Shown here: positions 6,576 through 57,635 of the stretch, in pieces | How the letters are laid out: the number at the start of each line of letters is the position of its first letter | Position numbering within the stretch: the first letter of the stretch is position 1 | Assembly (NCBI GenBank): GCA_008632985.1 | Contig: QPGO01000032.1 | Location: 245,330 to 309,329, forward strand | Direction of reading: 5' to 3' | Length of the DNA: 64,000 nucleotides | Source of the DNA: Psammoneis japonica | Taxonomy: Eukaryota | Program-made: the position numbers and the translations under genes | Notes under the pieces: generated by a model | The model's input: only the letters and a program-made list of their open reading frames with translations | What the model was told of the DNA's origin: nothing | The model's database searches: none

Positions 6576-6587
6576 GCGGCAGGAGTG

Positions 6588-19923: not shown

Positions 19924-20155
19924 GGCCTGTTCCAGCTCCAGGTGCTCCGCGCGGGTTCGATTCCCATCGTTTGGAATCCAAACCCGTTTTTTGCCAAATC
20001 GAAGGGTGAGTGTACACTTTGCATGCATTTTCGGGTGTACACTCACCTTTCGATTTTCGAAACGATCAAAATTGAAGGAGTTAATTGTGCTGAACTGCAC
20101 AGAAAATCGGCCTCTCGCGTGATGAAAAGCAGAGCACCTGGAGCTGGAACAGGCC
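19924..20155. mobile_element. MITE with 27-bp TIRs and an internal 22-bp hairpin
   Basis: TIR GGCCTGTTCCAGCTCCAGGTGCTCCGC matches the reverse complement of 20129-20155 at 26/27. 4-bp TSD CACC. Internal inverted repeat 19996-20017 / 20035-20056 matches at 21/22. Confidence 0.88.
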
Positions 20156-38314: not shown

Positions 38315-41300
38315 ATGCCTTCTGCTTCAGTGAATTGGGGTGATTGGTTGGGCTCTTGGAAACAGGGTCTCGACGAAGAGTCGGAACGGATCGATCGTCA
38401 GCGTGCAGCCTTTGGGGGAGATACGGTGGCTCGCATCAAGGATCTCAACGTGCTTCTTGTCGGATGCAAGGGTGTCGGAGTCGAGACGGCCAAGAATTTG
38501 ATCCTCTCCAATGTCGGTGCCGTGGTGTTGGTCGATGACGGTGCGGCACAGATTCAAGATTTGGGAAGCAACTTTTATCTAACGCAAGAGCACGTGACGA
38601 ACAAGACGAGTCGTGCTGAAGCGTGTCTGGCTCAACTCAAATCGTTGAATCCGTATTGTAAGGTTGACAAGTGGGCAGAAGCGTCGATTGAGGCATCTGC
38701 TGCAGACAATTTAGTAACGACAGACAATGTCTTGGGTACAGGCAAACCCCTGACTGCCATGGTGGTGACAGATCTTTTACCCAAGGATCAATTGATCTTT
38801 CTGAACGAAATGTGCCGTTCTCACAACATTGCATTTATCATGGCATTTAACAAGGGCGTCACCTCGAGTATCTTTAGTGACTTTGGAACTCATCACGAAA
38901 TTACCGATATCAATGGCGAACCTACTCAAATGCTCGCTATTTCAAACATGGAGGTCATTCAGAAACCTGATATTCTCAAGGTTGACGGTTGTAACAAGGG
39001 CGACACGATTGTCATCATTACGGTTGCATCTAGTGATCACGGACTAGACAATGGCGATACGGTCGTGTTGGATGATATGAGGGACGCTCTCTTGCCACTC
39101 AATGGCAAGGAATTCAAAGTCAAGCGTGTGGCCTTTGTGTCTCCCACGGAAGCCAAGATTGATACGCAGGATGTTTCCTTTCAGCTTGCGCTATCGGAAC
39201 CCACGGAGCGAGTTCTTGACAACTTTGAGCGTCAGTACAGTCATTATCAACTAGAGCACAAGGGTGACCGGCCCTTGCCAACACGCACCATTACCATGTT
39301 TAATCGACTCGCTTTGGTTCTGGATGAAGAGCAACAAGATCAACTAGTCGAGTTGTTTTCCCAGTACGAAGCGGGTGGATTGTTAAATCAAGTGCGTCCC
39401 GTCGTGACCAAGTCATACGACTCCTTGGCAGAAACTCTAATCAAGACGCCGGTTCCTCAAATGCTTCGCGGGGAAGATTGGGAAGCTGGAAAGGGTATTG
39501 AGGTGCACTTGTCGATTGCCGCCGTCTTGGAGTTTCAAAGCAAGCACCAACACTGGCCACGTCTCCACAATGCCAATGATGCAAAAGAGGTGTTGGAGTT
39601 GGCCAAGTCCATTTCCAAGGAACATAGTGGTATGGAGAATGCGTGTTGGGCACAATCCGTATCGTTTGGATTCCCCTCGGGCGAAGAGCGAGAGTTGGAC
39701 GAGGTTCGGATTTTGCGCTTTGCCAAGCTCTATTCAACCGAGCTGACGGGCTTTTGTGCCTTTTTGGGTGGAGCCGCTGCACAGGAGGTTTTGAAAAAGA
39801 CGGGCAAGTTTACTCCCATTTCACAGTGGATTCATCATGATGAACACTGCTTGGTTACGGACGAGTCACCCACCAATGTCGCTCCCAGCATGTTTGGATC
39901 GCGTTATGACCACCAACTGGCTGTGCTTGGCAAGGACTTTATGCACCGCATAGCCAACCAGCGTGTGTTCCTTGTGGGATGTGGTGCCTTGGGATGTGAA
40001 TACCTAAAGGGTCTATCTCTCATGGGTGTCGGTACCGGACGGAACGGTATGGTTCACGTGACGGATATGGATCGGATTGAAGTTAGTAACCTTTCGCGTC
40101 AATTCCTGTTTCGCGACAGCGATGTGGGAAATCCAAAGTCCGTGAGTGGAGCTCGCGTCGTCAAGGAGTGGAACCCACAACTCAACATTGTGGCACTCGA
40201 AAAGAGGGTTGGAAACGACTCGGAAGACTTTTTCAATGATGACTTTTGGGAGTCTCTCACCGTCTGCTGGAACGCCCTCGACAATGTTGCCGCGCGACAG
40301 TACACGGATGCACAGTGTCTCTTTTACGCCAAACCTCTCTTGGAGAGTGGAACGTTGGGCACCAAGTGTAATCACGAAGTTATCTTGCCCTACCGGACGT
40401 CCACCTACAATGACGGCAAGGAATCCGATGACAATGAAAATCAGATTGCCATGTGTACGCTCCGCTCTTTTCCATACCTACCGCTCCACTGTATTGAGTT
40501 CGCAAAGCAATCTTACTTTGCTGACTACTTTGAATTCGGTCCTGATCAGTACGAAACCTTCCGCAAGGACATGGCCTCGTTTTTTGAGCAGCTCGACAGC
40601 ATGGAAGCCGAGGAGCAGTTGAAGAGTCTCACCATGATTCAGTTCTACATTGAAAAGCAAAAGGACGGAAAGAAAATCGATTTTGAATTGTGTGCTCGCA
40701 TCGCTTTTGATCGAATGATTGAAGACTTTCGCACGTCCGTCCTGAACCTTTGCCACGCTGCGGATGAGATGGAGCGCTCGTCAGGTGAAAAGTTTTGGAC
40801 GGGTACCAAACGACGACCTCGTGCCATTGACTGGAACCCTTCAGAGCCCACTCCCGAACTTATGGAGTACATGTATTGCACGACAAACCTGTACGCCGTG
40901 GTTTGGGGACTTGATCCTGTCCGAGATCGTAGCCGCTTTGAGGAAATCATTCTCGCTCTAGGATTGGAACAACCCGAGTGGTCGCCGTCGTCTGACAATG
41001 TGAACTTGAATGAAGATGACAGCAACATGCTTGTTGGTGAAGACAAGAGTGAAGAGGCGGAGAAGATCAAGGCAGACTTATACTCTGCCGACGTGTCGTC
41101 TTTGCAGCCAGCATTCCCTCAAGATTTTGAGAAGGACGAAGATTCCAACTTTCACATTGATTTCTTGACGGTTGGAACCAACTTACGTGCATGGAATTAT
41201 GATATCAAGGCCTCTCCGCGCCACACAGTCAAGGTTACCGCCGGTCGTATCATACCCGCCCTCGCCACGACGACAGCCATGGTGTGCGGCCTCGTGGACA

Positions 41301-42061
41301 TTGAATTCTGCAAGCTTGTCTTGGGGCTTGAATCCTTAGGACGTGATCAGTTCCTCAACTCCAACATTAATCTGGCCGCAGGTTCCGGCAACTTTACTAC
41401 TTATAGTCCCGATCCACCGATTCCATTGAAAACCGGGCTCAAGCCACCTCTTCCGCAATCATTCTGTTCGTGGGACAAGATTGAAGTTACCCCGAGTGGA
41501 ACGGCCGAGATGACTGTCGAGCAATTGGTCAATTACATTGAATCATCGCTTGATGTCTCTGTAAGTCGCATCTTTTCCTTTGGCAGCACGGTCGATAAGG
41601 CTCTTTACAGTGCAACCAACAAAAAAAGGCTCGAGTGGGATATCACGATTGACGAGAGCGGAAAACCGCACGTATCGGACGGTGTCTTTGGCCAGTGGCC
41701 TCAAATTCGGATGGCAGTGCAAATGCTATCCAGGCTACCTCCCACAAGTGGACAGCGCAAAATCTTTGAGGGGCAAATCAACACGGTCAAAAAGGCGTTG
41801 GACAAAACCAAGGAGAACTTTGAGGACGTGTTCAAGGGACCCGTGTCCAAGGCCTTTCTCAAAGAGTATGAACCCGAGGATGAAGAGGAGAAGGCGTACT
41901 TTCATGCTGTGGCTGATGCAAGGGACTATGTGAAGCTCGGAGTCGATTGTCATACAATGGATGGGGAAGAGATCCACTTGCCCTGCATCAAGTACTCGTA
42001 CATGCCCGACGCCGAGATGACCAACGACCGTGCGGTCAAACGGCACAAACAGGGCAACTAG
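38315..42061 (+). CDS. UBA1: Ubiquitin-activating enzyme E1 (intronless, 1248 aa)
   Basis: GCKGVGVETAKNLIL, AAQEVLKKTGKFTPI, GCGALGCE, DMDRIEVSNLSRQFLFR, catalytic MCTLRSFP, FEKDEDSNFHIDF, GRIIPALATTTA. Confidence 0.95.
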   Translation: MPSASVNWGDWLGSWKQGLDEESERIDRQRAAFGGDTVARIKDLNVLLVGCKGVGVETAKNLILSNVGAVVLVDDGAAQIQDLGSNFYLTQEHVTNKTSRAEACLAQLKSLNPYCKVDKWAEASIEASAADNLVTTDNVLGTGKPLTAMVVTDLLPKDQLIFLNEMCRSHNIAFIMAFNKGVTSSIFSDFGTHHEITDINGEPTQMLAISNMEVIQKPDILKVDGCNKGDTIVIITVASSDHGLDNGDTVVLDDMRDALLPLNGKEFKVKRVAFVSPTEAKIDTQDVSFQLALSEPTERVLDNFERQYSHYQLEHKGDRPLPTRTITMFNRLALVLDEEQQDQLVELFSQYEAGGLLNQVRPVVTKSYDSLAETLIKTPVPQMLRGEDWEAGKGIEVHLSIAAVLEFQSKHQHWPRLHNANDAKEVLELAKSISKEHSGMENACWAQSVSFGFPSGEERELDEVRILRFAKLYSTELTGFCAFLGGAAAQEVLKKTGKFTPISQWIHHDEHCLVTDESPTNVAPSMFGSRYDHQLAVLGKDFMHRIANQRVFLVGCGALGCEYLKGLSLMGVGTGRNGMVHVTDMDRIEVSNLSRQFLFRDSDVGNPKSVSGARVVKEWNPQLNIVALEKRVGNDSEDFFNDDFWESLTVCWNALDNVAARQYTDAQCLFYAKPLLESGTLGTKCNHEVILPYRTSTYNDGKESDDNENQIAMCTLRSFPYLPLHCIEFAKQSYFADYFEFGPDQYETFRKDMASFFEQLDSMEAEEQLKSLTMIQFYIEKQKDGKKIDFELCARIAFDRMIEDFRTSVLNLCHAADEMERSSGEKFWTGTKRRPRAIDWNPSEPTPELMEYMYCTTNLYAVVWGLDPVRDRSRFEEIILALGLEQPEWSPSSDNVNLNEDDSNMLVGEDKSEEAEKIKADLYSADVSSLQPAFPQDFEKDEDSNFHIDFLTVGTNLRAWNYDIKASPRHTVKVTAGRIIPALATTTAMVCGLVDIEFCKLVLGLESLGRDQFLNSNINLAAGSGNFTTYSPDPPIPLKTGLKPPLPQSFCSWDKIEVTPSGTAEMTVEQLVNYIESSLDVSVSRIFSFGSTVDKALYSATNKKRLEWDITIDESGKPHVSDGVFGQWPQIRMAVQMLSRLPPTSGQRKIFEGQINTVKKALDKTKENFEDVFKGPVSKAFLKEYEPEDEEEKAYFHAVADARDYVKLGVDCHTMDGEEIHLPCIKYSYMPDAEMTNDRAVKRHKQGN

Positions 42062-42540
42062 GGACCCTACTGTAGCAGAGAAATACTATCGAAGTAGTCG
42101 GAGTGATACAAGTTTACACTAAAAGGGATCGCACGCGTCCAGTTCAAATGGCGTGGATGCTCGTAATGCTTAACTGACAAATATGACTAGTATAGTAATT
42201 CTATAGGAACCAAGGCAACAAATAATAGTGACGAGGACGCTAGTGATTACAAATACGGTACAGTAGGGTCAGAGTAACAACGACTTTAATAGGAGTCATG
42301 CGTTGTTGCAAAACAATAATCGGGTCGAAAATGAGTACGCATCCCCTAACACTTTACTTTGTCGTTTCACCCTTTTCGGCGTTCAATTTAGCGAAGTTGT
42401 ACGTTCGAGTATGGCTCCAGTTGTGATCGGTGTATTGGTGAGAAAACTGCCCGTCCTCGATGCGAATGTAACCGTTTGGGTGTGCTCCAAAACACTCATG
42501 CCACGAGGTGGCCTTTTCGTTGATTGGAGTAAAGATAATT

Positions 42541-43032
42541 TCAAACAAATCCTGGTCGGCATGGGGAGAGGAGCTGGCATGTGTAGTGAAATTTGTGCAC
42601 CTCGTTGTCACTGCCGGTGCGAGTCAGGTCCTTGTGGAAGACAACGTTCGCATCTCGTTGCCATACCTTGGTCATTGCCTCGAATCCATCCGTATGGAAT
42701 CGCATGTAGACATTGTCCAAGCCATCCTGGTGAACAAGGTGGCCGCAGTAGTACATGCCGTCCGTGCGCACGTGACAACCCGTTTCCATAGCATACAACA
42801 ACTTGGCAAGAACAACCTTCTTGTCTTTATTGCCGTCGTCTCCATCATCAGATTTCTCATGAAAGTGCTGTCGAAGCAAATGCTGTCCCGTCTCGGTCGT
42901 TTCCAAAAGTTGCTTCATCTCGCTTAGCTCCATGGTCTCCTCGTACTGACTCCACGGCAAAGTCGATTTCGTCTCACTGGGCGTCAGTGATGGTTTGTTC
43001 TTCTCCATAGCTGACGACTGCTCATCTTTCAA
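42541..43032 (-). CDS. Hypothetical protein, ~155-163 aa
   Basis: Open frame with protein-like composition between two genes; start uncertain. Confidence 0.55.
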   Translation of the reverse strand: MKDEQSSAMEKNKPSLTPSETKSTLPWSQYEETMELSEMKQLLETTETGQHLLRQHFHEKSDDGDDGNKDKKVVLAKLLYAMETGCHVRTDGMYYCGHLVHQDGLDNVYMRFHTDGFEAMTKVWQRDANVVFHKDLTRTGSDNEVHKFHYTCQLLSPCRPGFV

Positions 43033-43378
43033 AACTGATAAAGTTACCGCTTTACTCTACCTGTTTGTGTCTTCCTGGGGGGTGTGATTTGCTTCGCCAC
43101 AAGGTAAAGTGCAAAGTGCAACAACGAACAAGAAGTGACCTTACTTTCAGATTTTGTTGTTCCACGATGCAGCCACATACCGGTATAATGTCGTGTTTTT
43201 GAACGAGGCTTTTGAAAGAGTCGTGTCAAACTGTCGAAAACCTGTGCCGGTATCTTTCATTGCGGGGCGCTCATGTGTAGCGATGCAAGTTTAAAGTAAA
43301 AGGGATTTATGTACTTCAGTGTATGTATTTGCTTTTGTAGGATTTTTGAAAATACACGGTCGTTAGCATCCAGTCTCC

Positions 43379-44635
43379 TCAATGTGTTCGTTTCATGTAA
43401 CCAATCCGGTTCTCCACTTCCCAGTCTACATGCTCATTCATCCAGGAAATGTATTCAGGATCAAACTCGTTCTTCTTCCTTGGCTCTGATGGAGCATAGG
43501 GCGTGCACTTGGCTTGAATGCCAGTCTTTTCTTCAATCTCCTTGATGAGCTTGGCGGTTCCCTGTTGAACCTGATCCTCATAACGCAACAGCATGAAATC
43601 GGAAACACTTTCGTAATCGGCAATCTCCAAAAAGTTCAAATTCTTGTCGCGTCTCAAATCCACAATCGAGTCGTACGGTTGTCCCGGTCGATCTCGACGC
43701 AATTCGTATCGAGCAGGCCACCACCCTCTCTTGTTCAAATTCCGCGGCGACTTGCATGGAAAAATCTCGTGTGACTTGAATCCCTGCAAACAAGACGAGC
43801 GTTTCTTGTTGGATACGCGACCCCCGTTTTCTGCGTCCACCATGGCTTGTGGCACGGTCCACGGTCTCGTGACAAATTCCTTCCAATCCAAGTCAACATG
43901 ATTGGGAGAGTGGTGGGGCTTTTTCCTCATTGCCTCGACCCACGCGTACGGATCACGAAATTGTGCAATCACAAGAATATTCTTTTTGTCTGGAGGATCG
44001 TACTGAAACCAATGCTTCCAACGCGCAAAACTGCTCTTCATCTGTGACAGAAGTAGCCCGAGAATTGAAAATAGTTAGTTGCCTATCGAATCCTCACCGA
44101 AAAAACAGCAAATTCAAAATTGTTGTGTACTTACAAAAATATCGTCACCAAAGCATTCTGACAAGTGTTCAAACATCCAATTGGTACCCGAGTGTCGCTC
44201 TCCAAGAAATCGAATCTCTGTCGGATAAGTCTTGGTCTCACTGTTGTTGTTGGCAGCAAGTGATGAGTCTTGTTGCTGTTCTGATATCTGCTCCCGGAGA
44301 GTGCGTGAAGGATGAGTATCCGATATTGTGTTTGGAGGAACGACAACGGTTATGGGAGGCCGAAGTGCAATTGTACACAAGGCAATCAGGATGAGGATTT
44401 GTGTAGAAAGAATCTTATAGTTCCATCGTCTCTTTTGATCCGTGTAGAGTGGTAAAGGAGGATACTCATGGTGCGACGTCTTTGGAAAAGTTTTGCAAGG
44501 TGAGGACGACGGCGACCTTCTTCTAAATTCGGGAAACAACCTTCTTGGTGCTGGAAGCTGCGACGGTGACGTGGGCACAGAGAGACATTCATTGTCCTCC
44601 TCAAGGACGGGAAAGATTGGAGGGGTGTTGTTCAT
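43379..44635 (-). CDS. Type II membrane sulfotransferase-like (P-loop) protein (intron ~44042-44130)
   Basis: TM segment, 5'-PSB-like GERHSGTNW, WKHWFQ, 3'-PB-like QFRDPYAWVEAM, LLRYED. Confidence 0.8.
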
Positions 44636-44989
44636 TTTGTTGTTTGATGCCAATGCTCTGGGTCTTACTTGTGCAAAGAAAAATGAAACAAAAATAATGA
44701 GAGCTTTGTGGGGCTTCTCCGTTTTGTGAAGCAAGCGACCAGCACGGGTTTCAGGTGACTGACTGGTGTCATCGAATTCAAATCTTTGTACTAAAGACTT
44801 CACGTAGATTTCTACATCAACTAAATTTGAAATCTGAATAAATTTATCAGGTACTTAAAATTAATTAATCGATAGCAAACACGACCCAGTCACAAAACCG
44901 CCACTCTTCTCAAGACTGAAGAACTCAAGGAAGAACGGGAAAAAACGAGCGCAATGGCACTAAGAAGCCTTTCTCTGTCAGCGCTCTCC

Positions 44990-47900
44990 TTCATCAATCC
45001 TTGCCATTTGTCACATGCCTTCCTTGACACAAAGCACTCGCACTCATCTGTGGATTTGTTTTGTCACAGACAGCACCAGGCATCATCACAGATGAGCCAA
45101 TGACTTGCTGCTTTGGCAAGTTGCACTTGGCACAGCAAAGTGCAAATTGTTGCGCACACCAGGAGTCCTGGCATGAAATTGACACAACGAAATTGTTCTA
45201 AACATGAGTGTCAACACATCCTGAAGCCTCAAAAATGATGAGCTGCCCAACTTCAATGAAAACAACCAGTTCGTCGTCTCAAGAACACTCAGATGTTCTC
45301 AAAATTTTCACAGAAAATTGCCGTTGAGAGAAATTGTGGACAAACTGACAAATTGTTTAAAGTGCATTTCAACACACCCTGAAGTGTCAGAAATGGTGAG
45401 CTGCCAAACTCCTGCAAGAAGAAATGTGCCCCATTGTTCTTTTGGGCTTGTTGTGTCACGTGAGTGAACATCAATGTTGCACACACAAGAAGTCCAGGCA
45501 TGAAGCCCCCACCATCAACAGCCATGTTTGTCTCTTTGTGTGGCTGGGTGAACTTGGATTTTGACTCTTCATTTTTGCTTTTCTGTCTGGATTGGTTTGA
45601 CATGTGCAACATTTAAACAAAACTCACTGAGAACAGACACAAACTGTGGCCAGACAATTGACCTGTGTGGGAGATTTTGCAAAGTCAAAATGGTTGAATG
45701 TGGCTGATTTGTGATGCGTGCATGCTCCACAAGCAAAAATTTTGATGTCACATTTGGCTGGTTGCATTTTTTTTCAATGCCTCAAAAATGCAGCAATCAG
45801 GTGTGCACAGCTTGCAGAGCTGAGCATTGGAAGCATTCCTTTGCCTCCAAACTCTGCAAAAGTGGCCATTCTTTTTCCATTGGTGATGTTTGTTTGTCAC
45901 CTTTGCTCAAAAGCTGCAGAACTTACAAGCAAAATTCTGTTTTGCAGCATCTCAAAAACTCCAGCTGTGTGCTGGAACATGTCAGCTGCAGCAGCAAGTG
46001 GCATGCAAAGTCATGACTGTGAGTTTCTTGACGAGGTGTTTGCACTCTTCATCTGCATCATGCAGGGCCTGGCCGTTGGAGTGGCAGGTCATGAGAGTGA
46101 AGGCAGTTGCCACATCATGCTGGTGCATGATGTGCACAATTTTCAAAGACAATGACATGTGTCCATGTGCTTTGCTGGCCTTGCTCTGCTTTTTTGACAG
46201 TGAACGCAGTGCAGAAATTTTCACAGTTTTCCATCTTTGTTGCCACCAAAAAGCACTTGCAGTGTGGGGCAAAAATGTGCCAACAATGTGAGTGGAAACA
46301 GCAACACCCTGGTTCATGGTTCACCCCAGCACCCAGTGCCTTTGTTGGGCACTGACCCATCTCTTCAATCTGCCAAGCAACATGAGCACTCATCATTGCA
46401 CAGCAGCAGCAGAAAGAGAGAGCAGCAGTGGCAGCACGTTTTTGGCTTTGGCGCTTTGGCTCAATCAACTTGTGGCTCCATTGATGGTAAAAAAAAAATG
46501 GATGTTTGGCAGAAAAAAAAAAACAACTCAGTCGCCAGAGTGGCAGCTTGCCAGCAGCATTTTCTAGAAAGCATTGGATTCTGTTGACAAAACGTTTCTT
46601 TGTTGGTCTTGAGAATGGCTGGTCTTCTCCACCACCACTCCCTGTGTTGGGCCTGGCGTCATTGTGCATTCAAAAGATGTTCTTCCCTTTTGCTTTGCAG
46701 GTGCCAACCACTGCCAAAAACACTCAAGAAACACAGTCATGGAGAAAAGTGCCTGCTCTCACCTGCCAACATAAAATCCTGCTCAAAACCAGACAAAACT
46801 TGTGCAGTTCTTTGGATGATGTGTCTGCTGCTGCTCAGCCAAGAATGAGTTTAAAGTTTGTCCAAATGCCAATGGTCACAGTCTCTCTTCATCACATCTT
46901 GCACACCACAGATCAGCCAACACGTGCAGGCAATCTGCCATGTCAGAAAACATTGCTGCATGATTGTTGTCATTGTCAGAATTAACAACAGGAAACACAA
47001 TTGGTTGCCACAAGAACAACTGTTTTTGCTGTCAGCAAGGCTCAAGTGTCCAAGGTTGGCAATCTTGACAGCACTTGTGGGTGGAACCTGTGCATCCAAG
47101 AAGCCAACATGTTTGGGGTGCACTCCAGTCCTGGGTGGGGCATCACAGCACTGGAGCTGTTGCACAGCTCACGCATGCTGTGTCTTTGACTGCACTCTTT
47201 GGCACAAGAACAAGGCCCTTTTTTTGAAAATGCCAAAACTCTGCATGTCTCTTTTGTTTGTGCATGTGCATTGTCTTTTTTGTGATCTGCAAGGGTGAAG
47301 GATCTGCTTGACTTGCAAAACCAATGCAGCTGGTGGTCATTGACTTGTTCATTCATCACAGAGCTGATTTTCTGCAGAGCCCACATGCAGAATTCTGACA
47401 GCATGAAAAAATGAAGCATGCAGCCCCACCTCCTGCAGCTGGAGCACATCTTGACTGAAGCGTGGGGTTGGCACTGCAATGGCTGCTGCAGCCATTGCAA
47501 GTGCTGTGTTGCCCTGAAGAAACATTGGACAAGCACATGAGAAAGGGTTGTCTGGTGGTGGGTGGGGGTCAAGTGCAAAACTGTGTGCTCACAAATGAAG
47601 AGTGTTTCTTTTTTGTCAAAATTGCAGGTGTGGTGCATCATGTGCCATGGCTGGGAGCTTTCTACATTGTTGCCACCCATCAGACACACTGTTGGACAAT
47701 GGAGTTGCTGAGCCACAGCACTTTTGTTTTGCAGCCAGCAGAGTGACATTGGCCGAGCAGTGTGTGTTGGCAAGCAGTGCCAATGCAGCCCAGACTCCCA
47801 GTCAAGAGAGAAACTTGCATTTCTAATCATCATGGCTGCTCAACAAAAAGCCTGCATTGGTGGACAGCATGAGGCTTGGACAGTGTGAGGCTCAACATCT

Positions 47901-50900
47901 TGAAAAGCTCTGTGCTCTGAAGAAGTTCTTGGCTGGCGTGCACTGCCACCAATGGGAAGCACTCAACCTTGGTCCTGATGAGAACCTGTTTGTTGTTGGT
48001 GCAGCATGGACAATCAAGGGAGAGAAATGGCTCTTGTTCCACCAACTGCCTCTTCTTGTGAAAATTGATGCCACATTTCCACAAACAACAAGAAGAGAAC
48101 TTTTGTCACTTTCTTGGCCCTGTCACCCACCAGCAACTTTCATTTTTTAATGTCTTTCTGCCAGACCAAAAACAGGGCTGTTTTGTTGGGTCCTTCTTTG
48201 GGTCACATTTCTCACATTGGTGGATGAAATGTCACTTCAAAGGGTCAAAGTTGTCTTGACAGATGCAATGACTCACAAGAAGAAATTTGGGAGCTGAGGA
48301 GAGCCATCACACTGCCCTTGCAAGAGTTGTGTGTCATCAGGGCCAAGCTGGAGCACGCACCACAAAAAACTGAGCACTGTGACAACCCCCAAATGCCTGC
48401 AGCATTTCAAGCCCACTGTGGTTGGCACATCACCACAGAGAAGGATGGAGCCATCGCTGTCTTGGCAAGAGCTGTGTGTCATTGGGTCCAAACTGTGGCA
48501 CACACAAGCAATTTGTTGGTGCTGTCAAAGCATTGCTGAATTCCCTCATGCATCCCAGCGGTTGCAAGCATGAATTTGAGCTGAAGGCACATTGAAGCCA
48601 TTGCCACTCGCGTTGTTCCTTCACTTGCCCAAGGTTCTGCAAATCTGGGAAGAAAGTGAGGTCACCTTCCAGCACATCTTCTCATCACCTGGGGCCAGAA
48701 CAGGCCCAACAATGCCAGTGTGGCTGGTCTTTCCCAGCTCAGTGAAGTCAATTGCAGCCAGCAAAATGAGGACAAAGATTTTTCCAAAGGCCCATGGTTG
48801 ACATCTTTGGTGATGGTGACAATGGCAGCCCCCAAGACATTGGTCACATGGTTGGCCCAGTTGATCTCAATGACATGATTTGCATTGAGCAGGCCTCCAC
48901 CCCATCTTGTTTTAATTCTGTGTTGAAAATGTCATGTGGCTTGAGTTGTCCCTACAAACAAGAAGAGCATTTCTTGTCAGATGCACAACCCCTGTTTTCT
49001 GCATCCACCATGGCTTGTGACATGGCCCATGGCATCATGACAAAATTCCTTCCAATCCAAGTCAATGTGATTGGGAGAGTGGTGGGGCTTTTCACTCATT
49101 GCCTTGACCCACGCACAGGGATCATGAAATTGTGCAACTGCCAAAGCACTCTTCTTGTCTAGAGGATTGTGTTGAAACCAGTGCTTTTTCCCATGAGCAA
49201 AACTGCTCTTCAGCTGTGGCAATGGCACAAGGATTGAAAAGAAAAAATGTGGCTCCGCATGTCTCCTGTTGCTTGTCCAATCCTCATTGCCAAAAGAAGA
49301 AATCAAATTTGAAATTGTTGCACTTGCAAAAATGTCACCAAAGCATTCTGACAAGAAGTGGTTGGGCACCCATTTGGCAACCAAGTGTCACTCTCCAAGA
49401 AATCAAATGTCTGTCAGATGAGTCTTGGTCTCACTGCTGTGAGCAGCACATGATGAGTCTCATCATTGTTCTGGTTGCTGATGCTCCCAGAGAGTGCATC
49501 ATGAAGAAGCAGGAACATCTGACATGGTGCATGAAGCAGGAACATCTGACATTGTGCTTGGAGGAATGTGCAGCTGTGCACAAGGCAAACCATCATCTCT
49601 TTTGTCCCTTGGTTGCTTTGCACTGATGAAAGCATGACATTCTTGCAGATTGTTTTGTGGCCAATGAAACCTGCATTTTTCAGCCCGCCTTCCATGCTGT
49701 CATGCAAGAGCAACATTGACATGGCTGGTTGGCAAGCATCCTTGACAATCCAAAATCTTTCTCTGTGAAAACAACACTTTGTGTCTGTGCCTTGTTGCAC
49801 TGCATTCATTGACATCGGTTGATTTTTTGTTTGTCAAAATTTTATCTTGTTCATCTCTGTGACATGTTGCTTGTCACAAAGAGAGGGAGAGAGAGAACAG
49901 GGATGACAAGGCAGCAACAGAGATGGCAGCTGAGACAGCGCAGCTGTGAAGGAAACAGCGGCAGCGAAGGAGATGGCCACAACAATGGCGCAGCTGCAAA
50001 GAACACACAGTGGCAGCAGTTTCTGAAAAATGTGCCAGCAAAACAGCAGCAAATGGGGCTGGAGAAGATTCCAGTGAAAAAGCAGAAAGATGTGGACAAA
50101 GCAGCACCACAACAGCAGCAACAGCAACTTGGTGCAATGCTCTGCAAAGATGTGGACAAAGCACCACACAACAGCAGCAACAGCAACTTGGTGCAATGCC
50201 CTGTTTGTGTTGCCACTGCTGCTGTTTCATTTTTTGATCTTGTTGTTGTTGTCATCATTCCCACACACAAGTGGCCACGGCATGCTGCCAAGCTGTTTTT
50301 CTGATGTGCTCATCATGCCAGCATCCATCATCAAGCAATGAAGCAAACATTTTGTCAAGATTTTTGTTGGCACACAAGTGAATTTTGTTGTTAAAAGAGT
50401 GCAGAAAGTGCAAGCTCTGGCATCTGCTGCAAGTTTGCACAGTGAAAAACTGCTCAGAAGAGCTCAAACAATGTCAAAATGCACTCACCTGGACAAGCTG
50501 GGACAGGCCCTGGATTGTGCTGATGATGCGCTGCTTCTTCTTTGCAGATGCCCTGGCATGGACTCTTGCAGCAACTTTGGCCAACACAAAACAATTTGGG
50601 CAATTTTGTCCTTGCTGAAGCACCAACCCTTCTTCCTTTGGGAGCCTTGTCATGCAACACCAGCCCCAGAGCAGCCAGTGCACACACCTGCAGCATGTTT
50701 GTTGATGCGGTGGAGCTTGTGCAGCTCTTTGTGATGAGAGTCCATTCACAAAGCACAACAATTTCCTTTGTTGAGAAGATGGGCACATTTTCCTTTCTTG
50801 AGCAGAGCAACAATGACACAAGCAACTGATGAGAATGCCCCTCTCCCTTCTCCCACTTGGTGTGCAGCAGACACAGATCATGAAATTCTGTGTGCTCCGC

Positions 50901-50990
50901 CAGCAAGAAGTGAAACTGTGGCTGCAGGCACTCTCAATGGTGCTCCTGCAGCAATCTAAATTTGAGTGCAGCATCTCCTGCAGCTCTTCC
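44990..50990. mobile_element. Block of heavily decayed, TpA/CpG-depleted repeat remnants (families not identified)
   Basis: Composition matches the recognised dead TEs; no intact motif recognised. Includes a ~57-60 bp tandem duplication at ~50086-50200. Confidence 0.5.
48843..49610 (-). pseudogene. Hypermutated partial copy of the sulfotransferase-like gene (equivalent to ~43670-44440), intron retained
   Basis: Collinear alignment; translates as KHWFQHNPLDKKSALAVAQFHDPCAWVKAMSEKPHHSPNHIDLDWKEF versus KHWFQYDPPDKKNILVIAQFRDPYAWVEAMRKKPHHSPNHVDLDWKEF. Confidence 0.92.
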
Positions 50991-50997
50991 ACATTGG

Positions 50998-53900
50998 TGT
51001 TAGAACAAGTTGGAAGATGGGAAATTTAAGAAACCCAGATGTGTTGAAGGAAAGACACTGTTGAACCTGTCGTGGAAGATGCAGCAACCCCTTTTGTGCA
51101 GAAGAAGGAACATGCCATCATTGATCTCTTGTTCCATCCATTTTGTTTGTCTCACTCTTTGGAGTGATTCATTTGGTTCATCAAGAATGCATGATTGCAT
51201 CACGTTGGCATCACTGGGTGCCTGTCACACCATGAGTTTGAAGTTTGCATGGACAACTTTGCAGGCAACCCACAGCCACACAAGCAGCCAAGGCAAACAC
51301 AACAAGAGCACAGGAAGCCTTGTGAGATTCCTGTTTGGTGCCTTTGACTTGCTGGTTTGACATTCAATTCAAAGAGTCAAGAGCACAACTGTGTTGGTGC
51401 TTGTCGACACTTTGCTGCCTGCAGTTCACAGATTGCTGAGTGCCTGCAATGTGAGTGGCAGAGGACATGGCAGAGGTGACAGTCAAGACACCAAGGATGT
51501 GGTCGTGAAATGGGTGACAAGAGTCACAGGTCCTCACAAGTGAAGAAGAAGACCACTGCCAAGAAATGCTTTCAGCTTGAGATGAAGTTTCATCCTTCAT
51601 CACTGAACAGCAAGTCTTGGAATGCAACCTTTGAAGATGTCAAGGAAAAGATTGTGAGGTGCATGCAAAAGGAGCACACTCAAGGCACACATCCAGCAAG
51701 GTCCATTGAAGACATGGCTCACAAGGACTTGAGCACCAAAAGGCCAACATTGGGAATGGCATCAATGGTGGCACCAGCAGGGGACAAGTCAGACTGCCAA
51801 GAAAAGTTGCTCTAAAGACTGCAAGAGGAAAAGGAGCTGGAGTTCCAGCACAAAGCAAAGCTTTGCAAGTGCAACAACAAAGTGAGGCAGTTTGAAGAGA
51901 ACAAGACTGCAGCACTTTCCAAGATGTCAGCCAGATGACTGCTGCACCAAGCAAATGAAGCAGGGAGTGTGCAAGCCAATCCCACTTGTTTGACAATCAG
52001 GGATGATCCAGTTGAGCTGTTCAAGCTGATCCAATCACTTGCCTTTGACTCTGAGGGAGGTCAACACCCATTTCACATGCTTGCCAGATCAAGTCAGAAC
52101 CTGCCAGATGTGAAACAACAAGAACATGAGTCACTGAATGACTGCTTGTCAAGGACAAAGTCACATGCAGAAATGAGATGAAGACATCTCACTGGTGGAC
52201 AGCAACAGCTCCAGTGCAGGTGCCACCAGATCTGATTGATCTGCCCACTCAAGCTGAAACAGAGGAGCTGCGTGGCACAAACTGAAGCTGGCAACCAGAG
52301 ACAAGCATGGACTGAGACAACAAAGATGTGGAAATGGATGAGATCATCTTTGACAATGGTTTGACCCTCAGCATGGCAGCCAGCCTGAGACAAGTGCCCA
52401 ATGTGTGATCAGCAAAGGTCAAGAAAGACCTGTCCACAAGTGCAGAAGTGGACACTTTAGATGGCCCTGCGCCCAGTGTTTTTACTCCGTTCTACTCAGC
52501 CATCACTGCAGCTGCTGCTGTGCCTCCTTCTGCTGTCCCCTTCCATTCTTTGTGGGCTCTTCACAGCTGTGTGCTTAAAAAACTGTGCCATGCCCAGATG
52601 GGAGCCATGAAGCTTGGATCACAGAATGTGATGGCAAACACTCCAAGCATGAAGGACGTGAAGAGCAAATGCCACATTGCATGTGACAACCAAGTGGTGG
52701 ACAAGTTCCAGCTGCTGGACAAGAAGACTGCCAAGAAAGCAGTGGTGTTCAAAGACAATGACATTGGACCACACACCTTTGCACCAAGCCAGGAGTTCTT
52801 TGACTGCACAAAAGATCTCCAAGACAGCAAGTCACATGTGAGCATGCTGTCAAAAACAAAGAAGAAGCTCAGAAAGAAGAGCAACAAGAAGCACAGGAGT
52901 GCATCTGGAACTGTCACTCCAATGCTGGAGCAGAGCTCTGCTTGGGCCGGCCATGTTGTGAAGTTGGAATCCCTGACATGGACAGAATGGTGTGCATTTG
53001 GGGACCACCCATTGACGCACCAAAAAGAAAAGCCAAATGTGCCCATCAAGCCCATGAGAGGAACAACGTTGTTGCAACCCCACCTGAGATGTGCAAGAAA
53101 CAGAGAGCAGGTGTGATCCTCTGCATTGACATTGTGGAAATGTGCAGAGTGAAGATCCTGCATGCAATTGACAAGATGACAAAAAGCGCCAATTGAGTGT
53201 GAGACTGCAATCCAAGAAACATGCTGATGTGCTGCACCAACGCAACATGGATTTGTTCAAGATGGACTTCATTGAGTGCAATCCTGAGTTCAAGGACATT
53301 CTGAAAAAAGTTGCCAATGACACAAATCTCAAGCTGCTGTCTGCAAATGCCAGCAACCACATTCCTGAAGTTGGGCAAAGTTGTTGAGACCTGCAAGGAG
53401 CAAAACTCAAGCCACAGTGCACCGTGCACCACATGCTGTGCAAGGCAACACCCAAGCTGACATGCAAGCACACCATGATCAAGAATGCTGTGATGGCAAA
53501 CATGTGCCCACAAAAGGAGGGAATCATTGACATGTGCAGCACAGTCCACACACTGTTGAGCAAAGAAGAAACCTTGATTGTGACAAGCACTTCATGCATG
53601 GATTTGGCACATTTGTCCTGTCCCACGTTGAAAATGACCTGACAAATGTGATGGACATGTGTGGTGTTGACAGCACTTGCCTGCTGCAACCACGTGTCTT
53701 GACATTTCCAGCAAGGGCAGCCAACACACAATGAACCTGCAAACGGGGAAACTGCTGAGCCTCCACAAGTGCACTGCTGCATCCCTGGCCACACACGCAT
53801 GCAAAGGTGGTCAAGAAGATGGCCTCAGCACAAACACCATCAAAAACTTTAAATTTGCGGGAAAATGTGGAGACAACCTGCACGGCACTGATTGGACTGC

Positions 53901-56850
53901 AGGATTGGACAGCAAAGAAAACAAAAATGAAAACAAAGAAAAACAATGGCAGCAGCAAAGACAAAAGCAACAGCAAAGATGAAAGTGAGCCAAATCAGAA
54001 GACAAAGACAATGAAGAAGAAGAGCTTGACCCAGAAGATGAACATGATGAAGTGCCAGAAGACAAAAGGTCCAGTTGCAGTCAACAACATGAGGACCATG
54101 ACAATGAAAAACAAAATGACTGTGAAGAGTCAAATGAAGAGTCAGAAGAAGATCCAGAAATGGACAAATCATCCACTGAAGAAAAGAGTGGAGAACAACA
54201 ACTGGTGGACAAGGCAGATGGACTGCCATGACATGAAGTCATGAGAACACCAAAAAAAGAAGAAAGTTTGGCTTGTGGGAGAGACAGATGCAGACAGAAA
54301 AGGAGTGCTGAAAGCTTGAGTGCTGCCATCATTTGAGAACTGGCATGAGCCCCAATCCAGGACGGAGCAGCATTGAATGTGACACAGATGCAGGAATGGC
54401 ACCAGCACAATTCATGTGTGAGATCAATGGCTGGCTCTGGTCAGGAAAGGGTGGTCCTTTGCCCAACAGTTCCCACTGCACAAAGGCCTGAAAGTGTTTG
54501 GCCAGAGAGGACACAAAGCCACAGAGAAAGAAAGAAATGAGACAGCTGCATGACAGAGTGTGCTTTGCACCAATTTCAGTTGAAGACATCTCTCTGACTG
54601 AGAGGAAAAAGGCCATGATTCCCTTGATGTTCCCAGCAGAGAAGCAAGATGGTCACACACCAAAAGGGCGGGTGGTCTGTGTGATGGAAAACTGACCAGA
54701 GAATGCCTGGACAAGGATGACTCAGCTGGCCTGACTGCATCATTTTGGAAGGAACATTGACAACAGCTGTTGTCAATGCAGTGGAAGACCGTGATGTGAT
54801 GAGCATCAATGTGCCAAATGCGTTCATGCAGACATGGATCCTGGAGCCAAAAAAGGGCAAAAACCAGATTGTGATGAAGATCACAGGAGTGTTGGACAAC
54901 ATGCCAGTGAGCATTGATCCCAACCCATGTGTGCCATGCACAGTTGTGGAAAAGAGAAAGAGAGTCTTTTGCACCCAAGTCATTGCCAAAGCAACACATG
55001 GAATGTTGACCACAGCTTTGCTGTGGCACAAGCAATTCTGCAAAGACCCAGAGAAGATTGGGTTTAATTTCAACCCATGTGATCCAATCATTGCCAGCAG
55101 CTGCTTGCCACAGTGAAGACGTTCCACATGTGGGTGGCCAAAGGACTGTTTTGTCCAAGAAAGGCTGCATGGATGTGCACCTGACCATTGCAGCACTGTG
55201 CATGATGCAGGTCAGAGAACCAACCAACAAGGGCTGGGAGAAGTCAGTCCATTGTCTCAAGGGTTTGTTGAGCCGGGCATGAAATGAAGTCTCCACGTCA
55301 AGTGCAAAGGACCTCCAAACAGCTGAGTGGCACACAGATGCATCATTTGCAGTGCACCCAGATTTCAAGAGCCACACCTGACAGAGGAATTGTGGCTGTG
55401 GGCAATGGAGCAGGTCAGGCCATGTTGAAGCAGCAGAAGCTCAGCACCCAAAGCAGCACAGAAGCTGAACCAGTGGGAGTTGATGACACCATGACTGTGA
55501 CACAGTGCCTGGATGAAGTTGTTCATGGAGCACCAAGAGGCCATCCAATTGATGAGAACATCCTTTGTCAGGACAACAAGAGCACCATGCTGCTGGAAAC
55601 TGATGGGTGCAAGAGTGCAGGAAAAAGATCAAGGACACTCAACATTCAACATTTTTGTGGTTGTCAATCAGATCAAGAGAGGCACCAATCTTTGAGTGCA
55701 GCACTGTCCTGCTGATGAAGTGCTTGGAGACTTTAGAACTGAGCCATTGCAGGGCAAGAAGTTTTGAAAATTCAAACAAGCCATTGTGGGCTGTTGGCAT
55801 CAAGCATGACAGGAGCATTTCCTGTTTGTGATGTCAGATGAGAATTCTGATGCATGTGGGTGAAAGATCCCTGCAACCCAGAAGGTGTGGTGAACTGCAT
55901 GGTTCAACCAATCACAGAGTTGCTTGTTTTGCCACAACCATGATTTTGATGACCATTTGCACCAATTGTGAGCTTGAAGAACCAGGGTGTGTGCTGATGA
56001 GCAGCGTGAAGCACATGACGCATTCATGCAGTCAACAGTGGCCACAACATTGTTGGAATGAGTTTGTGAAGTTGGGTGAACCATCAGAGAGAGAGGGAGA
56101 GAAAGCAACTGATTTCAATGTCAAGACTTCCAGAAGGCAGACTGGAAGAACACAACAAATGGACACAACATTTTTGGCCGAGACTGGTGACAGATCCCCA
56201 CATCTGTTGAGAGGCAGCAATCAGCACACATTTGTTGTCAGTCGTGTTCATGCAACACTGCAAGAAGGAGGTCTGGAACTCTTTCCAAGGACTGCAAGAA
56301 GAACGCAGGGATGAATTTGAACAACAAAGGTGGCACAAGCTGTGGACAGTGAGGCACAAGACAATGGGACATGTGTGCAGGGAGAAACATGGATGGACCA
56401 ACCAAGTGCATCAGCACACATCTGTCTGCCACTGCACTGATGATGATCTCCTTGTTTGACAATGGAGAGGAGATGACAGCCATGGTTGAGGACCATGTGA
56501 GAGCAGCGCACAAGACCAAGGCACATTGACAGCTTGTTGGAAATCAAATCTGGGTCCAATGACTCAAATGTTGCAAGCCAAGATTCTGGTGTGAGGCCAA
56601 CCTAAGAGCACACCACAGCAATGATTGTGGGATTTCTTGGCAACAGGTCATGTCCACCACATGGGCAGAATGTCGACACCAGTCTGCCCCACATGTGGCA
56701 TGATTGCCATGGGACATGTGAACCTCTCATGGGATGCACCACCAACTGGCCCACAGAAATGAAGATGTGACAATTTGGGTTGGTGCAAGACAACAATTCA
56801 GCTGTCTATGATGCTTTGAAGTTGGCACAATTCTTCACAAACACAAAATT
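50998..56850 (+). mobile_element. Second Ty1/copia element related to element 1, more decayed and 3'-truncated
   Basis: 5' LTR 50998-51362 (TGTTAGAACAAGTT...TTTGACA; shares CCACAGCC.CACAAGCAGCCA with the element 1 LTR). gag, IWGPP, integrase, RT (NVPNAFMQT, NPCDP, with an internal deletion at ~55110), RNase H (QSSTEAEPVGVDD, QDNKS) and a 3' extra-ORF remnant. No 3' LTR seen. Confidence 0.88.
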
Positions 56851-57635
56851 GTTGAAACAAGGGGCCTGAGAAAGAATGGGGGCTTGCCACAATCTGCATT
56901 TCTTTGAGCTGGGCTGCACAGAGTTGCCAATGATTGGGTGATGGACCCAATCAGGGCCATGGGTCTGCACAGCAACACTATGTAAAAGAAGACTTGGCAT
57001 GCGTGCATGCAACATTGTAAGTGTCATTGAAAGTGCTGTTGTGTGCCTCATCACATGGCACACCGGCAATGGCCGGGGCACATTGGTTGATTGATTGATC
57101 ACTCTTGTCAATTTTTTGTCACGTTTGTTTTCCCTGTTACATGCCACTTGTCACAAGAGAGAGAGAGAGAGAGAATTTCACAACATTTGTCATTTTGATT
57201 GTCGTGGTGGTGTTTTCTTTGGTGCAACAGCGTTTTGAGCGCCTCGAAATTTTGTGAGGGCGTTTGGCGATGTGGTCGAAAATTTCAAAATTGTGCTGGT
57301 ACATCTGCGACGTACATTTCTACACGGACTCAAGTTTAATTTATATTCAGTCTTTAAGATGGACAATTTAATTAACCTATTAAACATCATATAATATACA
57401 AAATTCAACGGCCGTTGAGCCGTTGAGTACAACCGCTACGTGGCATGTACGACGATGGAAATTTCCGTGTGCACTCAGTGCGCCGTTGCGTAGAAATCAT
57501 ACCAACGCCTACGCAGCATCGTGGGTGAGTCGCAAAAATCGCATTCGCATCTCTCTCCACAACAAGACAACACGATCGTGTTGCAAAAACGCGACAGTGC
57601 ATGTCGAGTCGTCCATTGCAATCACAAAAACTACA

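Follow-up and report, generated by a model that had tools for sequence, protein, structure and literature searches.

Context-specific transitions as the probable cause of CpG and TpA loss in transposon-bearing intergenic DNA of a diatom

This locus of Psammoneis japonica raises the question of what has removed almost every CG and TA dinucleotide from a decayed gene fragment that shares a 64,000-nucleotide stretch of DNA (contig QPGO01000032.1, hereafter the window) with unmutated members of its own gene family. The fragment occupies positions 48842-49611 on the minus strand and was identified from its alignment, dinucleotide counts and in-frame stops as a decayed partial duplicate, or pseudogene fragment, of this local family. 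Its intact counterpart is a two-exon gene of 387 codons at 43379-44635, also on the minus strand, with exon 1 at 44135-44635, exon 2 at 43382-44041 and between them an intron of 93 bases (44042-44134) that reads GTAAGT...CAG on that strand. The gene has a CG O/E of about 1.0 and a TA O/E of about 0.45. It belongs to a diatom family that had no match in Pfam, and a profile of 26 sequences found no relative in the PDB. An intact paralog lies in divergent orientation on the plus strand at 57636-58921, and its GT-AG intron (57986-58205) was confirmed by a spliced contig of an RNA-like run, X2. The same run has no contig over 43.2-49.8 kb and no RNA run was listed for 45001-55000, neither of which we count as evidence. 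Scans of the window with Rfam and for tRNAs found nothing.

The relationship between the gene and the copy is clear at the nucleotide level. BLASTN matches 43677-44304 to 48850-49497 with E=5e-112, spanning parts of both exons and the intron between them, and when the pair is aligned globally the match reaches 44444/49611, in agreement with the coordinates given for both in the original prediction. The copy corresponds to about codons 111-288 of the 387 in the gene and is truncated at both ends. Six stop codons fall in its frame among 168 compared codons, and it also carries indels, including an internal tandem duplication of roughly 27 bases. The intron-equivalent stretch is present at 49214-49327 on the minus strand and matches the gene intron in 68 of 88 aligned columns, with a further 31 gap columns. 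This bears out the earlier view that the copy is not a retrocopy and places the duplication at the DNA level; a processed pseudogene was rejected on the same ground. The copy is a non-processed, DNA-level pseudogene fragment, collinear with the exons and intron of the gene and disabled in frame. Ordinary duplicated pseudogenes in transposon-rich DNA likewise keep their introns and show truncated ends, stops and indels. However, they decay by the background spectrum of the genome, whereas in the copy 40 of 46 CG/TA sites have become TG or CA.

Over 606 aligned bases the pair is 81% identical and differs by 88 transitions and 25 transversions, and all seven of the gene-to-copy substitution strings quoted beforehand were found in the alignment. 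The gene has 33 aligned CG sites, of which 16 read CA in the copy, 12 read TG, 4 have changed in other ways and 1 is retained. At the 13 aligned TA sites the copy has TG in seven cases, CA in five and TT in one, with none retained. It had been proposed that most alignable TA and CG sites are now TG or CA, and the count per dinucleotide places this at 28/33 for CG and 12/13 for TA. The remaining 14 dinucleotides were retained at 388 of 543 sites, and a Fisher test against them gave p=7e-22 for the two dinucleotides pooled, with 1e-7 for TA and 8e-16 for CG when each was taken singly. Realignment with scoring that does not favour transitions gave 85 transitions and 29 transversions; 28 of 33 CG sites still went to TG or CA with 1 retained, and 11 of 14 TA sites did so with 0 retained. 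Counted per strand-site, T>C changes occurred at 12/25 NTA sites versus 27/277 other T, so the TpA rate greatly exceeds the background rate of transitions. AA changed to AG or GA at 8 of 57 sites. The copy itself holds 1 CG and 3 new TA. The two outcomes, TG (19) and CA (21), alternate along the copy without strand runs, and strand-coordinated clusters of the kind expected of a processive single-strand deaminase were not seen along it.

The direction of these changes was judged with 35 homologous proteins. Where a codon difference consisted entirely of CG/TA changes, the gene state was the older in 12 cases and the copy state in 1, with 13 uninformative (binomial p=0.003); the change therefore ran from CG/TA to TG/CA, as originally supposed, and TG/CA is not ancestral. 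Residues R147, R174, R196, Y199, T225 and Y279 are conserved in 16/18 to 35/35 homologs and are changed in the copy only. At no fewer than five positions (>=5) the copy nevertheless retains a family-consensus residue that the gene lacks, with homolog support for the gene versus the copy residue of 2 vs 20 at N188S, 0 vs 18 at I189A, 1 vs 12 at V216I and 1 vs 12 at V230M. It follows that either the copy comes from a sister paralog, a caveat raised at the outset, or the gene itself has diverged too. As judged by sequence comparison, the copy was duplicated either from the gene at 43379-44635 or from one of its close paralogs, and with its true parent lying outside the window, part of the 113 differences arose on the gene side.

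The copy does not stand alone in its composition. It lies in a depleted domain at 44990-57100, where CG O/E is 0.05-0.20, TA O/E 0.00-0.07 and TG and CA O/E 1.6-2.7. The edges of this domain are sharp at the scale of 100-200 bases, the left edge falling ~355 bases upstream of the ATG of the gene and the right edge ~450-550 upstream of that of the paralog. By the same CG/TA composition a domain containing an LTR element runs from 1 to ~7550, and a third lies at 17000-24800 (CG O/E 0.10-0.45, TA 0.03-0.11) with diverged internal repeats at 21221-22309 and 23804-24922. A fourth TA-free stretch begins at the end of the window (63400-64000), with 0 TA in 600 bases and CG lost only partly. Across the affected domains TA O/E is 0.00-0.12 and CG O/E 0.05-0.5. 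The GC content is the same in depleted and genic DNA, at about 0.47, and AA O/E is 1.15 in both compartments. Conversion in silico of all CG and TA in genic sequence gave a TG/CA O/E of 1.95/1.93, compared with 1.95/1.81 observed in depleted DNA, where TG and CA are also equal in count per kb. The process is strand-symmetric, acts site by site and ends a few hundred bases short of the starts of genes that look active. A region at 16600-17100, with many CG and few TA, was considered as a case of TA loss without CG loss and rejected; it is GC-rich and resembles a CpG island.

The domain at the start of the window contains an LTR retrotransposon at 202-6933 on the plus strand, identified by its terminal repeats (202-536 and 6588-6933, with TG..CA ends), a 5-base target duplication (AACAT/AACGT) and a polypurine tract before the 3′ LTR. 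No reverse transcriptase, integrase or gag domain was found in it by Pfam, either among ORFs of >=90 aa at E<=0.01 or among selected ORFs at E<=5, and the element is either non-autonomous or decayed past recognition. A second, diverged copy of the family was located by repeat comparison at 51240-55887 on the plus strand, and matches the first at 64-72% identity in four-letter coding and 83-88% in purine/pyrimidine coding. The two LTRs of the first element differ by 39 transitions and 5 transversions, and 32 of the 39 transitions fall in pyrimidine-purine steps. Ten dinucleotides are TG in one LTR and CA in the other, 11 sites are CG versus TG or CA and 1 is TA versus TG. A two-parameter fit to these differences put the ancestral number of CG+TA sites at about 35 in 329 bases, equal to the genic density, and gave a CG+TA survival of 0.26 and a rate about 33x that of other transitions. 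Since the LTRs differ almost only at sites derived from CG and TA, with 10 discordances, the change took place on DNA, in place and after insertion. The share of TG/CA discordances among adjacent double differences was 10/17, 33/116, 37/123, 23/80 and 45/119 in five pairs from depleted domains versus 0/2, 0/9 and 1/52 in three genic pairs. Transitions at CG/TA sites are raised roughly 15- to 30-fold over other transitions, and the loss of TA is at least as fast as that of CG.

We therefore favour, with a probability of about 80%, the reading that self-complementary pyrimidine-purine dinucleotides have been removed in place by context-specific transitions in transposon-bearing intergenic domains. 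The steps would be CpG to TpG/CpA and TpA to TpG/CpA, both taking place on DNA after insertion.

The sites that survive in depleted DNA have flanks of their own. Among the 59 residual TA in 22.7 kb of depleted DNA, YTAR accounts for 37, with TTAA making up 19 of these, and RTAY for 2, compared with 218 YTAR and 416 RTAY among 1338 genic TA. Only two TA sites are common to both LTRs of the element at 202-6933, a TTAG and a TTAA, and the fact that these are shared indicates that residual TA are survivors and not new arrivals. Surviving CG, on the other hand, does best as GCGC, and the two dinucleotides thus follow different flank rules, TA surviving mainly as YTAR and CG as GCGC. We also looked for a flank rule for which base pair of TA changes and do not claim one. 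Composition hinted at it, the ratio (RCAR+YTGY)/(RTGR+YCAY) being 1.49 in depleted DNA compared with 1.16 for genic DNA and 1.08 when simulated without bias, but the polarised half-sites, which divided 2 vs 2 for TA and 5 towards to 7 away for CG, gave it no support, and the excess may come from the ancestral composition of the elements.

Could homology rather than location direct the mutations? A process like RIP, triggered by homology and perhaps premeiotic, run by dedicated enzymes of a novel dinucleotide specificity, would strike duplicates and leak into unique DNA, and the domain pattern would then be secondary. The fully depleted 45.0-48.8 kb is difficult to explain in this way, having no repeat within the window and a flat word depth of 60-75 in a public read set, X1. 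Depth in the same set does climb to 130-525 over 51.0-56.4 kb, although this is not a copy number, and the depleted domains do contain repeat families, namely the LTR element with its second copy and the repeats at 21.2k and 23.8k; the pseudogene too is a duplicate. On the other hand the edges lie at gene starts and not at repeat ends, a TA-free zone continues ~600 bases beyond the end of the LTR, and a genic tandem repeat of 340 bases and 94% identity retains 12/14 CG and 17/19 TA. In ascomycetes RIP depends on RID/DIM-2, turns CpA into TpA, lowers GC and mutates both duplicates. Its products resemble the depleted DNA in their dense, dinucleotide-specific transitions in transposons and duplicated gene fragments and in an outcome reminiscent of genome defence, the destruction of ORFs. 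The dinucleotide rule, however, is the opposite: TpA is destroyed instead of made, and A:T-to-G:C and C:G-to-T:A changes occur equally often and leave GC as it was, so that the TpA excess and lowered GC of a fungal-type signature were not found (TA O/E 0.00-0.12, GC about 0.47). Nor do both partners seem to be hit: within the window the intact gene, the paralog at 57636-58921 and the tandem repeat are all unmutated, although the true parent of the copy lies outside it. RID-related DNMT4 genes are described as widespread in diatoms (PMC9998398), which would be in keeping with a RIP-like process. Overall we regard such a process as unlikely.

The original prediction went further and proposed that targeting is by chromosomal domain. 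Depletion that runs from edge to edge and the untouched 94% repeat favour domain over homology, but the proposal is left unproven by an island of ~450 bases with normal CG and TA density, at 1505-1940, inside the depleted LTR element. Inverted repeats of 25 bases (1533-1557 and 1911-1935) flank it, and a promoter-associated motif occurs twice within it, in inverted copies. Position within a depleted domain is evidently not sufficient, and either the island is of very recent origin or something protects it. A short, single-copy insert below a length threshold would also be expected to escape a RIP-like process, which the island would suit.

We also considered that the letters themselves may be wrong. 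Were modified bases at CG and TA systematically miscalled, a path-based consensus that writes TG or CA about 50:50, and never CG or TA, would mimic every pairwise signal described above, and the library types of the read runs are not recorded. Contigs of X1 nevertheless match 42001-46517 at all but 1 letter and 46492-49930 at all but 4, giving the same letters across the domain boundary, where noisy long reads would assemble otherwise. These De Bruijn contigs are up to 7.5 kb long here, with a word depth of about 60, and 0.94 of sampled 31-mers agree. The five places at which X1 differs in 45.0-49.9 kb mark it as a separate consensus. X1 rules out a consensus artefact, yet it probably derives from the sample that was assembled and does not provide independent biological support. 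The strong and differing flank rules of residual CG and TA, together with the indels, stops and 25-29 transversions of the copy, also speak against miscalling, and we consider this explanation very improbable.

An equally improbable proposal is that the DNA, being foreign or specialised, always avoided CG and TA, for example to escape a nuclease, and that the copy came from a paralog of this kind. The origin of much of the depleted DNA is indeed obscure, as none of its 128 ORFs of >=90 aa matched a Pfam family at E<=0.01, one sub-threshold match to DUF7029 aside, and 11 selected ORFs gave only noise at E<=5. Against avoidance from the start, the polarised codons place the loss of the six conserved residues (R147 to Y279) in the copy, the LTR fit implies a genic density of CG+TA upon insertion, and the copy, with its 6 stops, is not under selection as a gene. 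Least credible of all is editing before integration, whereby retroelement RNA or cDNA was deaminated (A-to-I, C-to-U) and then inserted to form a pile of edited copies; most of the repeats that can be identified are indeed LTR elements, whose sense strands are A-rich, and hyperediting of retroelements is familiar from animals, but LTRs that were copied from one template and identical at the start now show the 10 discordances and 12 one-sided CG/TA losses, the target-site duplication copies differ (CG vs CA), the mutated gene fragment has an intron, and TG and CA counts are symmetric between strands.

How might removal in place by context-specific transitions be brought about? In vertebrates, plants and diatoms, CpG decay driven by methylation likewise yields TG and CA symmetrically and spares gene starts, and as here is restricted to transposon domains, with CG surviving best in GC-rich flanks (GCGC). 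Diatom transposons carry CG methylation maintained by DNMT5, according to PMC9998398, and the loss of CG in the window fits this known methylation, being symmetric and confined to the domains. In the CpG half of the process, 5-methylcytosine would then be deaminated in transposon DNA that is CG-methylated, as known for diatoms, and the depleted domains would be silent, methylated chromatin, a state predicted here from their sequence and from what is known of other diatoms. Methylation-driven decay leaves TpA alone, however, whereas in the depleted domains the loss of TA is no less complete than that of CG and follows another flank rule. The TpA half would thus call for a second, sequence-specific A:T-to-G:C process on the same silent chromatin.

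For this second process several routes can be suggested. Enzymatic deamination or modification of adenine, for instance by a DNA adenine deaminase or through a mark placed at TpA, is a tentative candidate, and something other than the routes named here is just as possible. Modification of thymine of the hydroxymethyl- or formyl-uracil type seems doubtful, and we would say the same of biased processing of T:G mismatches in methylated DNA. We know of no enzyme that makes TpA-specific A:T-to-G:C changes in duplex DNA. The chemistry of the deaminases (ADAR, APOBEC, TadA/ADAT2-3) does fit, in that a deaminated amino base gives TG on its own strand from both CG and TA. One of the TadA/ADAT2-3 tRNA deaminases reportedly acts on A in RNA and C in DNA, and TadA-type enzymes target A after U/T, while ADAR favours a 3′ G. 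That preference is opposite to the depleted DNA, where TAG and TAA survive. These enzymes moreover act on RNA or single strands, on transcripts or before integration, and leave asymmetric clusters, whereas the changes described here came after insertion and are symmetric and unclustered. To our knowledge, the only well-studied process that couples local deamination of C with TA-favouring A:T mutation is immunoglobulin somatic hypermutation, in which AID deaminates C and error-prone patch repair with polymerase eta gives A-to-G at WA. It is strand-biased and transcription-coupled, extends over a few kb of expressed genes and mutates AA; here AA is unaffected and the pattern strand-symmetric.

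Taking the two halves together, we think it possible, at somewhat less than even odds, that an active TpA-specific A:T-to-G:C conversion operates in diatom silent chromatin, strongest at R-T-A/T-A-Y and sparing TTAA, alongside CpG decay. If so, adenine in DNA would have a natural deaminase, or TpA would carry a heritable modification as mutagenic as 5-methylcytosine, and mutational genome defence would have been invented a second time, independently of RIP. Among titles and abstract openings in the literature, none described a eukaryote that loses TpA from its silent DNA, and the accessible part of 10.64898/2026.05.21.726589 mentions neither diatoms nor mutation. Relatives represented by 80 metagenome loci, in all 426 kb cut into 735 windows of one kb, had 0 windows with TA O/E <0.25 and 1 with CG <0.3, although these contigs are gene-centred and the figures do not imply absence of the process in other diatoms.

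Context-specific hypermutation of silent or repeated DNA has two main known forms, CpG methylation decay and fungal RIP, both of which rest on cytosine chemistry. If TpA is removed by domain-restricted A:T-to-G:C transitions no more slowly than methyl-CpG decays, another chemistry joins them, and with it a new eukaryotic way of crippling transposons. Loss of TA erases the stop codons TAA and TAG along with signals of the TATA type and scrambles coding sequence. It would also affect the dating of transposons in diatoms, with LTR divergence inflated about 30-fold at CG/TA sites, and the detection of repeats, where purine/pyrimidine coding gives 83-92% identity in place of 64-87% with four letters. 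Heterochromatin might be read from bare diatom sequence, and a natural duplex-DNA activity that converts A:T to G:C would present a concrete target for an enzyme search.

The comparison with X1 also bears on the age of the process. Swaps between CA and TG distinguish X1 from the window at 56318-9 and 56331-2, but repeats abound there and paralogous copies may be the source. A further site, 49378-49379 within the gene copy, reads CA in the window and TG in the X1 contig, with TA at the homologous position of the gene; such a difference between haplotypes or strains suggests that the process has been active recently.

We aligned the intact two-exon gene (43379-44635, minus strand), a member of a diatom family, with the copy, its decayed partial duplicate (48842-49611, minus strand), and counted substitutions per dinucleotide context. 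BLASTN matched 43677-44304 to 48850-49497 (E=5e-112) and global alignment extended the match to 44444/49611. The copy is truncated at both ends and carries 6 stops among 168 compared codons. Its intron-equivalent stretch is present and matches the gene's intron at 68 of 88 aligned columns, alongside 31 gap columns, which makes the copy a DNA-level duplicate, as the original prediction held. Over 606 aligned bases the pair differs by 88 transitions and 25 transversions. The predicted change of CG and TA to TG or CA was confirmed as a selective one: among 33 CG sites one was kept, 16 became CA and 12 TG, and none of 13 TA sites was kept (7 to TG, 5 to CA), whereas the remaining fourteen dinucleotides kept 388 of 543 sites (Fisher p=7e-22), placing TpA substitution well above the rate elsewhere. 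Scoring without a transition preference gave the same picture, with 28/33 CG and 11/14 TA sites going to TG/CA. The gene-copy pair is a valid internal control for the mutational regime. The copy also contains an internal tandem duplication of ~27 bases (49499-49556) that is absent from the gene, and beside the copy lies a low-complexity CAG/CTG-type tract (49813-50304), open in several frames. Sequence at 49812-49897 is similar to 57080-57175, at the far edge of the copy's domain.

The direction of change was read by projecting the copy codons onto an alignment in which the gene product was joined by 34 homologs and by the intact paralog from the window (57636-58921, plus strand). Where a codon difference consisted only of CG/TA to TG/CA, the gene state was older in 12 cases and the copy state in 1, with 13 uninformative. 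The gene residue is conserved at R196 (34/35 homologs), Y199 (33/34), T225 (32/35) and Y279 (35/35), and the copy's residue at these positions occurs in none of those homologs. At several positions outside CG/TA the copy, not the gene, retains the family-consensus residue (N188S, 2 vs 20; I189A, 0 vs 18; V216I, 1 vs 12), which means that a sister paralog gave rise to the copy or that divergence has affected the gene as well. The earlier caveat about a sister paralog was therefore justified, and the CG/TA direction is unaffected by it.

Per-kb observed/expected (O/E) dinucleotide ratios place the copy in a 12 kb depleted stretch at 45.0-57.1k, with others at 1 to about 7.5k, 17-24.8k and 63.4k onward. 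Genic DNA has a CG O/E of about 0.8-1.2 and TA of about 0.45-0.75; in the depleted stretches CG is 0.05-0.5, TA 0.00-0.12, and TG and CA 1.6-2.7, with G+C about 0.47 in both. At a scale of 100-200 bases the edges are abrupt. The left boundary of the copy's domain is ~355 bases upstream of the gene ATG (44635); the right one is ~450-550 bases upstream of that of the divergently oriented paralog (57636). Converting all genic CG and TA randomly to TG/CA in silico predicted TG/CA O/E of 1.95/1.93, compared to 1.95/1.81 observed, and the excess is therefore quantitatively that left by such a conversion. Across 80 metagenome loci around gene relatives, 426 kb in all, no one-kb window out of 735 had a TA O/E <0.25 and one had a CG O/E <0.3; being gene-centred, these contigs show the rarity of such values, not the absence of the process in other diatoms. 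The one flagged window (L026, 1-1000; CG O/E 0.08, TA O/E 0.56, 32% GC) is a CG-only depletion in a different organism. A stretch bordering the second depleted domain, 16600-17100, is GC-rich and CpG-island-like, with up to 14 CG per 100 bases and TA nearly absent.

The original prediction also proposed targeting by chromosomal domain, which is plausible and stops short of proven. Depletion is unbroken across the copy's domain, which is framed by two gene starts. The segment at 45.0-48.8 kb is fully depleted though none of it is repeated within the window, and depth there in X1, a public read set assembled into contigs, is flat at 60-75 with one bin at 117, this depth not being a copy number. 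The TA-free zone extends about 600 bases past the end of the LTR, and a genic tandem repeat of ~340 bases and 94% identity (8438-8780/8776-9117) keeps 12/14 CG and 17/19 TA, with transversions (13) exceeding transitions (6); it served as an unmutated control. Against a pure domain rule stands a 450-base island (1505-1940) of normal CG and TA content within the depleted LTR element, bounded by 25-base inverted repeats (1533-1557, 1911-1935). The island contains two inverted copies, at 1609 and 1876, of a motif that also adjoins gene starts at 15652, 16497, 31181, 38178, 44801 and 57310. This motif of ~17 bases has two ACGT cores (exact form ACGTACATTCTACGT at 16497-16511) and, at ≤2 mismatches, matched 4 times, where chance predicts 0.07; it may be a promoter element. 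Either the island inserted very recently, as a TIR-type element, or it is protected and promoter-like. Given the depleted segment lacking a repeat and the unmutated genic repeat, we consider it improbable that a RIP-like, homology-triggered process acted here instead of chromatin-domain targeting.

The sequence itself is reproduced in X1, which is probably from the same sample. X1 contains 0.94 of sampled 31-mers of 45001-55000, and its contigs, at a word depth of about 60, cover 42001-46517 with 1 differing letter and 46492-49930 with 4, which makes a long-read-consensus miscalling artefact very unlikely. At 49378-49379 the window has CA and X1 has TG, and the corresponding dinucleotide of the gene is TA; two haplotypes or strains, with ~1 differing site/kb here, carry alternative products of one TA. 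Two further CA/TG swaps (56318-9, 56331-2) occur in a repeat-rich part, and paralogous copies may account for them. Among the X1-window differences listed in genic 57.2-59 kb there was no such swap, those present being single changes. The one clean case, at 49378-49379, suggests recent activity of the process.

Evidence that the change took place on DNA comes from the LTR-bounded element (202-6933), whose direct repeats (202-536, 6588-6933) have TG..CA ends, with a purine-rich tract before the 3' repeat. It is flanked by a 5-base duplication, AACAT/AACGT, the copies of which differ as CG vs CA. The two LTRs of a single insertion are identical when it integrates. These two now differ by 39 transitions, 32 of them in pyrimidine-purine steps, and 5 transversions, including 11 sites of CG vs TG/CA, 1 of TA vs TG and 10 of TG vs CA, the last class being the necessary outcome of one ancestral CG or TA decaying independently in two copies. 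A simple fit with 35 ancestral sites and a survival of 0.26 reproduces all three classes, and implies a genic CG+TA density of the LTR at insertion and change at these sites ~33x faster than other transitions. Of the adjacent double differences, TG/CA discordances account for 28-59% in five depleted-domain pairs (10/17, 33/116, 37/123, 23/80, 45/119), compared to 0/2, 0/9 and 1/52 in three genic pairs. Depleted repeats are 64-87% identical in four letters and 83-92% after purine/pyrimidine recoding. The CG/TA change occurred in place, on DNA; RNA/cDNA editing before integration is incompatible with the LTR-LTR discordance and the intron-bearing gene fragment, and was rejected.

TG and CA counts per kb are equal, and outcomes in the copy alternate without strand runs (totals 19 TG vs 21 CA). 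This marks the process as symmetric and acting on each site separately, in contrast to a processive single-strand deaminase. TA depletion always exceeds CG depletion; the LTR pair, the youngest datable piece, has 5 TA and 13 CG left. The 59 residual TA in 22.7 kb of depleted DNA include 37 YTAR (19 TTAA) and 2 RTAY, against 218 and 416 among 1338 genic TA (Fisher p=1e-14 and 3e-7). The two TA sites common to both LTRs are TTAG and TTAA, and are therefore survivors, not new mutations. Residual CG (n=221) is enriched in GCGC (31 vs 70/1669 in genic DNA), with T/A-flanked sites scarce, and this difference in flank rules argues for two mechanisms on the same DNA. A flank rule for the base pair changed at half-site TA was not retained; composition was suggestive, and the few polarised events gave no support.

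The CpG half behaves like 5-methylcytosine deamination, and transposon CG methylation maintained by DNMT5 is documented for other diatoms in PMC9998398. The TpA half requires that a palindromic dinucleotide in duplex DNA change from A:T to G:C, and do so no more slowly than methyl-CpG decays. It is possible that a deaminase, TadA/ADAT-like or otherwise, turns adenine, perhaps a TpA-directed modified adenine, into hypoxanthine. Alternatively, a TET/JBP-type enzyme could oxidise thymine, the hydroxymethyl- or formyl-uracil so formed mispairing with G, or a T:G-mismatch glycosylase drawn to methylated DNA might fix G misincorporated opposite T. The literature searched contained no account of TpA being lost from silent DNA; the CpG half of the regime is ordinary and the TpA half seems new.

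The window comes from the nuclear genome of a diatom. Named relatives of the gene come from Attheya, Seminavis and Coscinodiscus (37-55% identity). Beside the gene lies a single-exon ubiquitin-activating E1 gene (38300-42061; Pfam ThiF, UBA_E1_SCCH), with best matches at 63-70% identity, the named ones from Ditylum, Thalassiosira and Odontella. No close relative turned up in the protein collection searched. The gene's two exons are separated by a GT-AG intron of 93 bases (44042-44134). In the paralog, a contig from a second run, X2, joins 57985 to 58206 across the GT-AG intron (57986-58205), so X2 derives from transcripts and the paralog is both expressed and spliced. The genic parts code for ordinary proteins with trypsin, U-box, HSP20, TLC and helicase-associated domains, the last (HA, PF03457) repeated in two neighbouring ORFs at 61185-62726. 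Paralogous ORFs at 9853-10365 and 28816-29262 match CesT (Tir chaperone, PF05932; E=2e-8 and 2e-4), a bacterial family that is surprising in a diatom nuclear gene.
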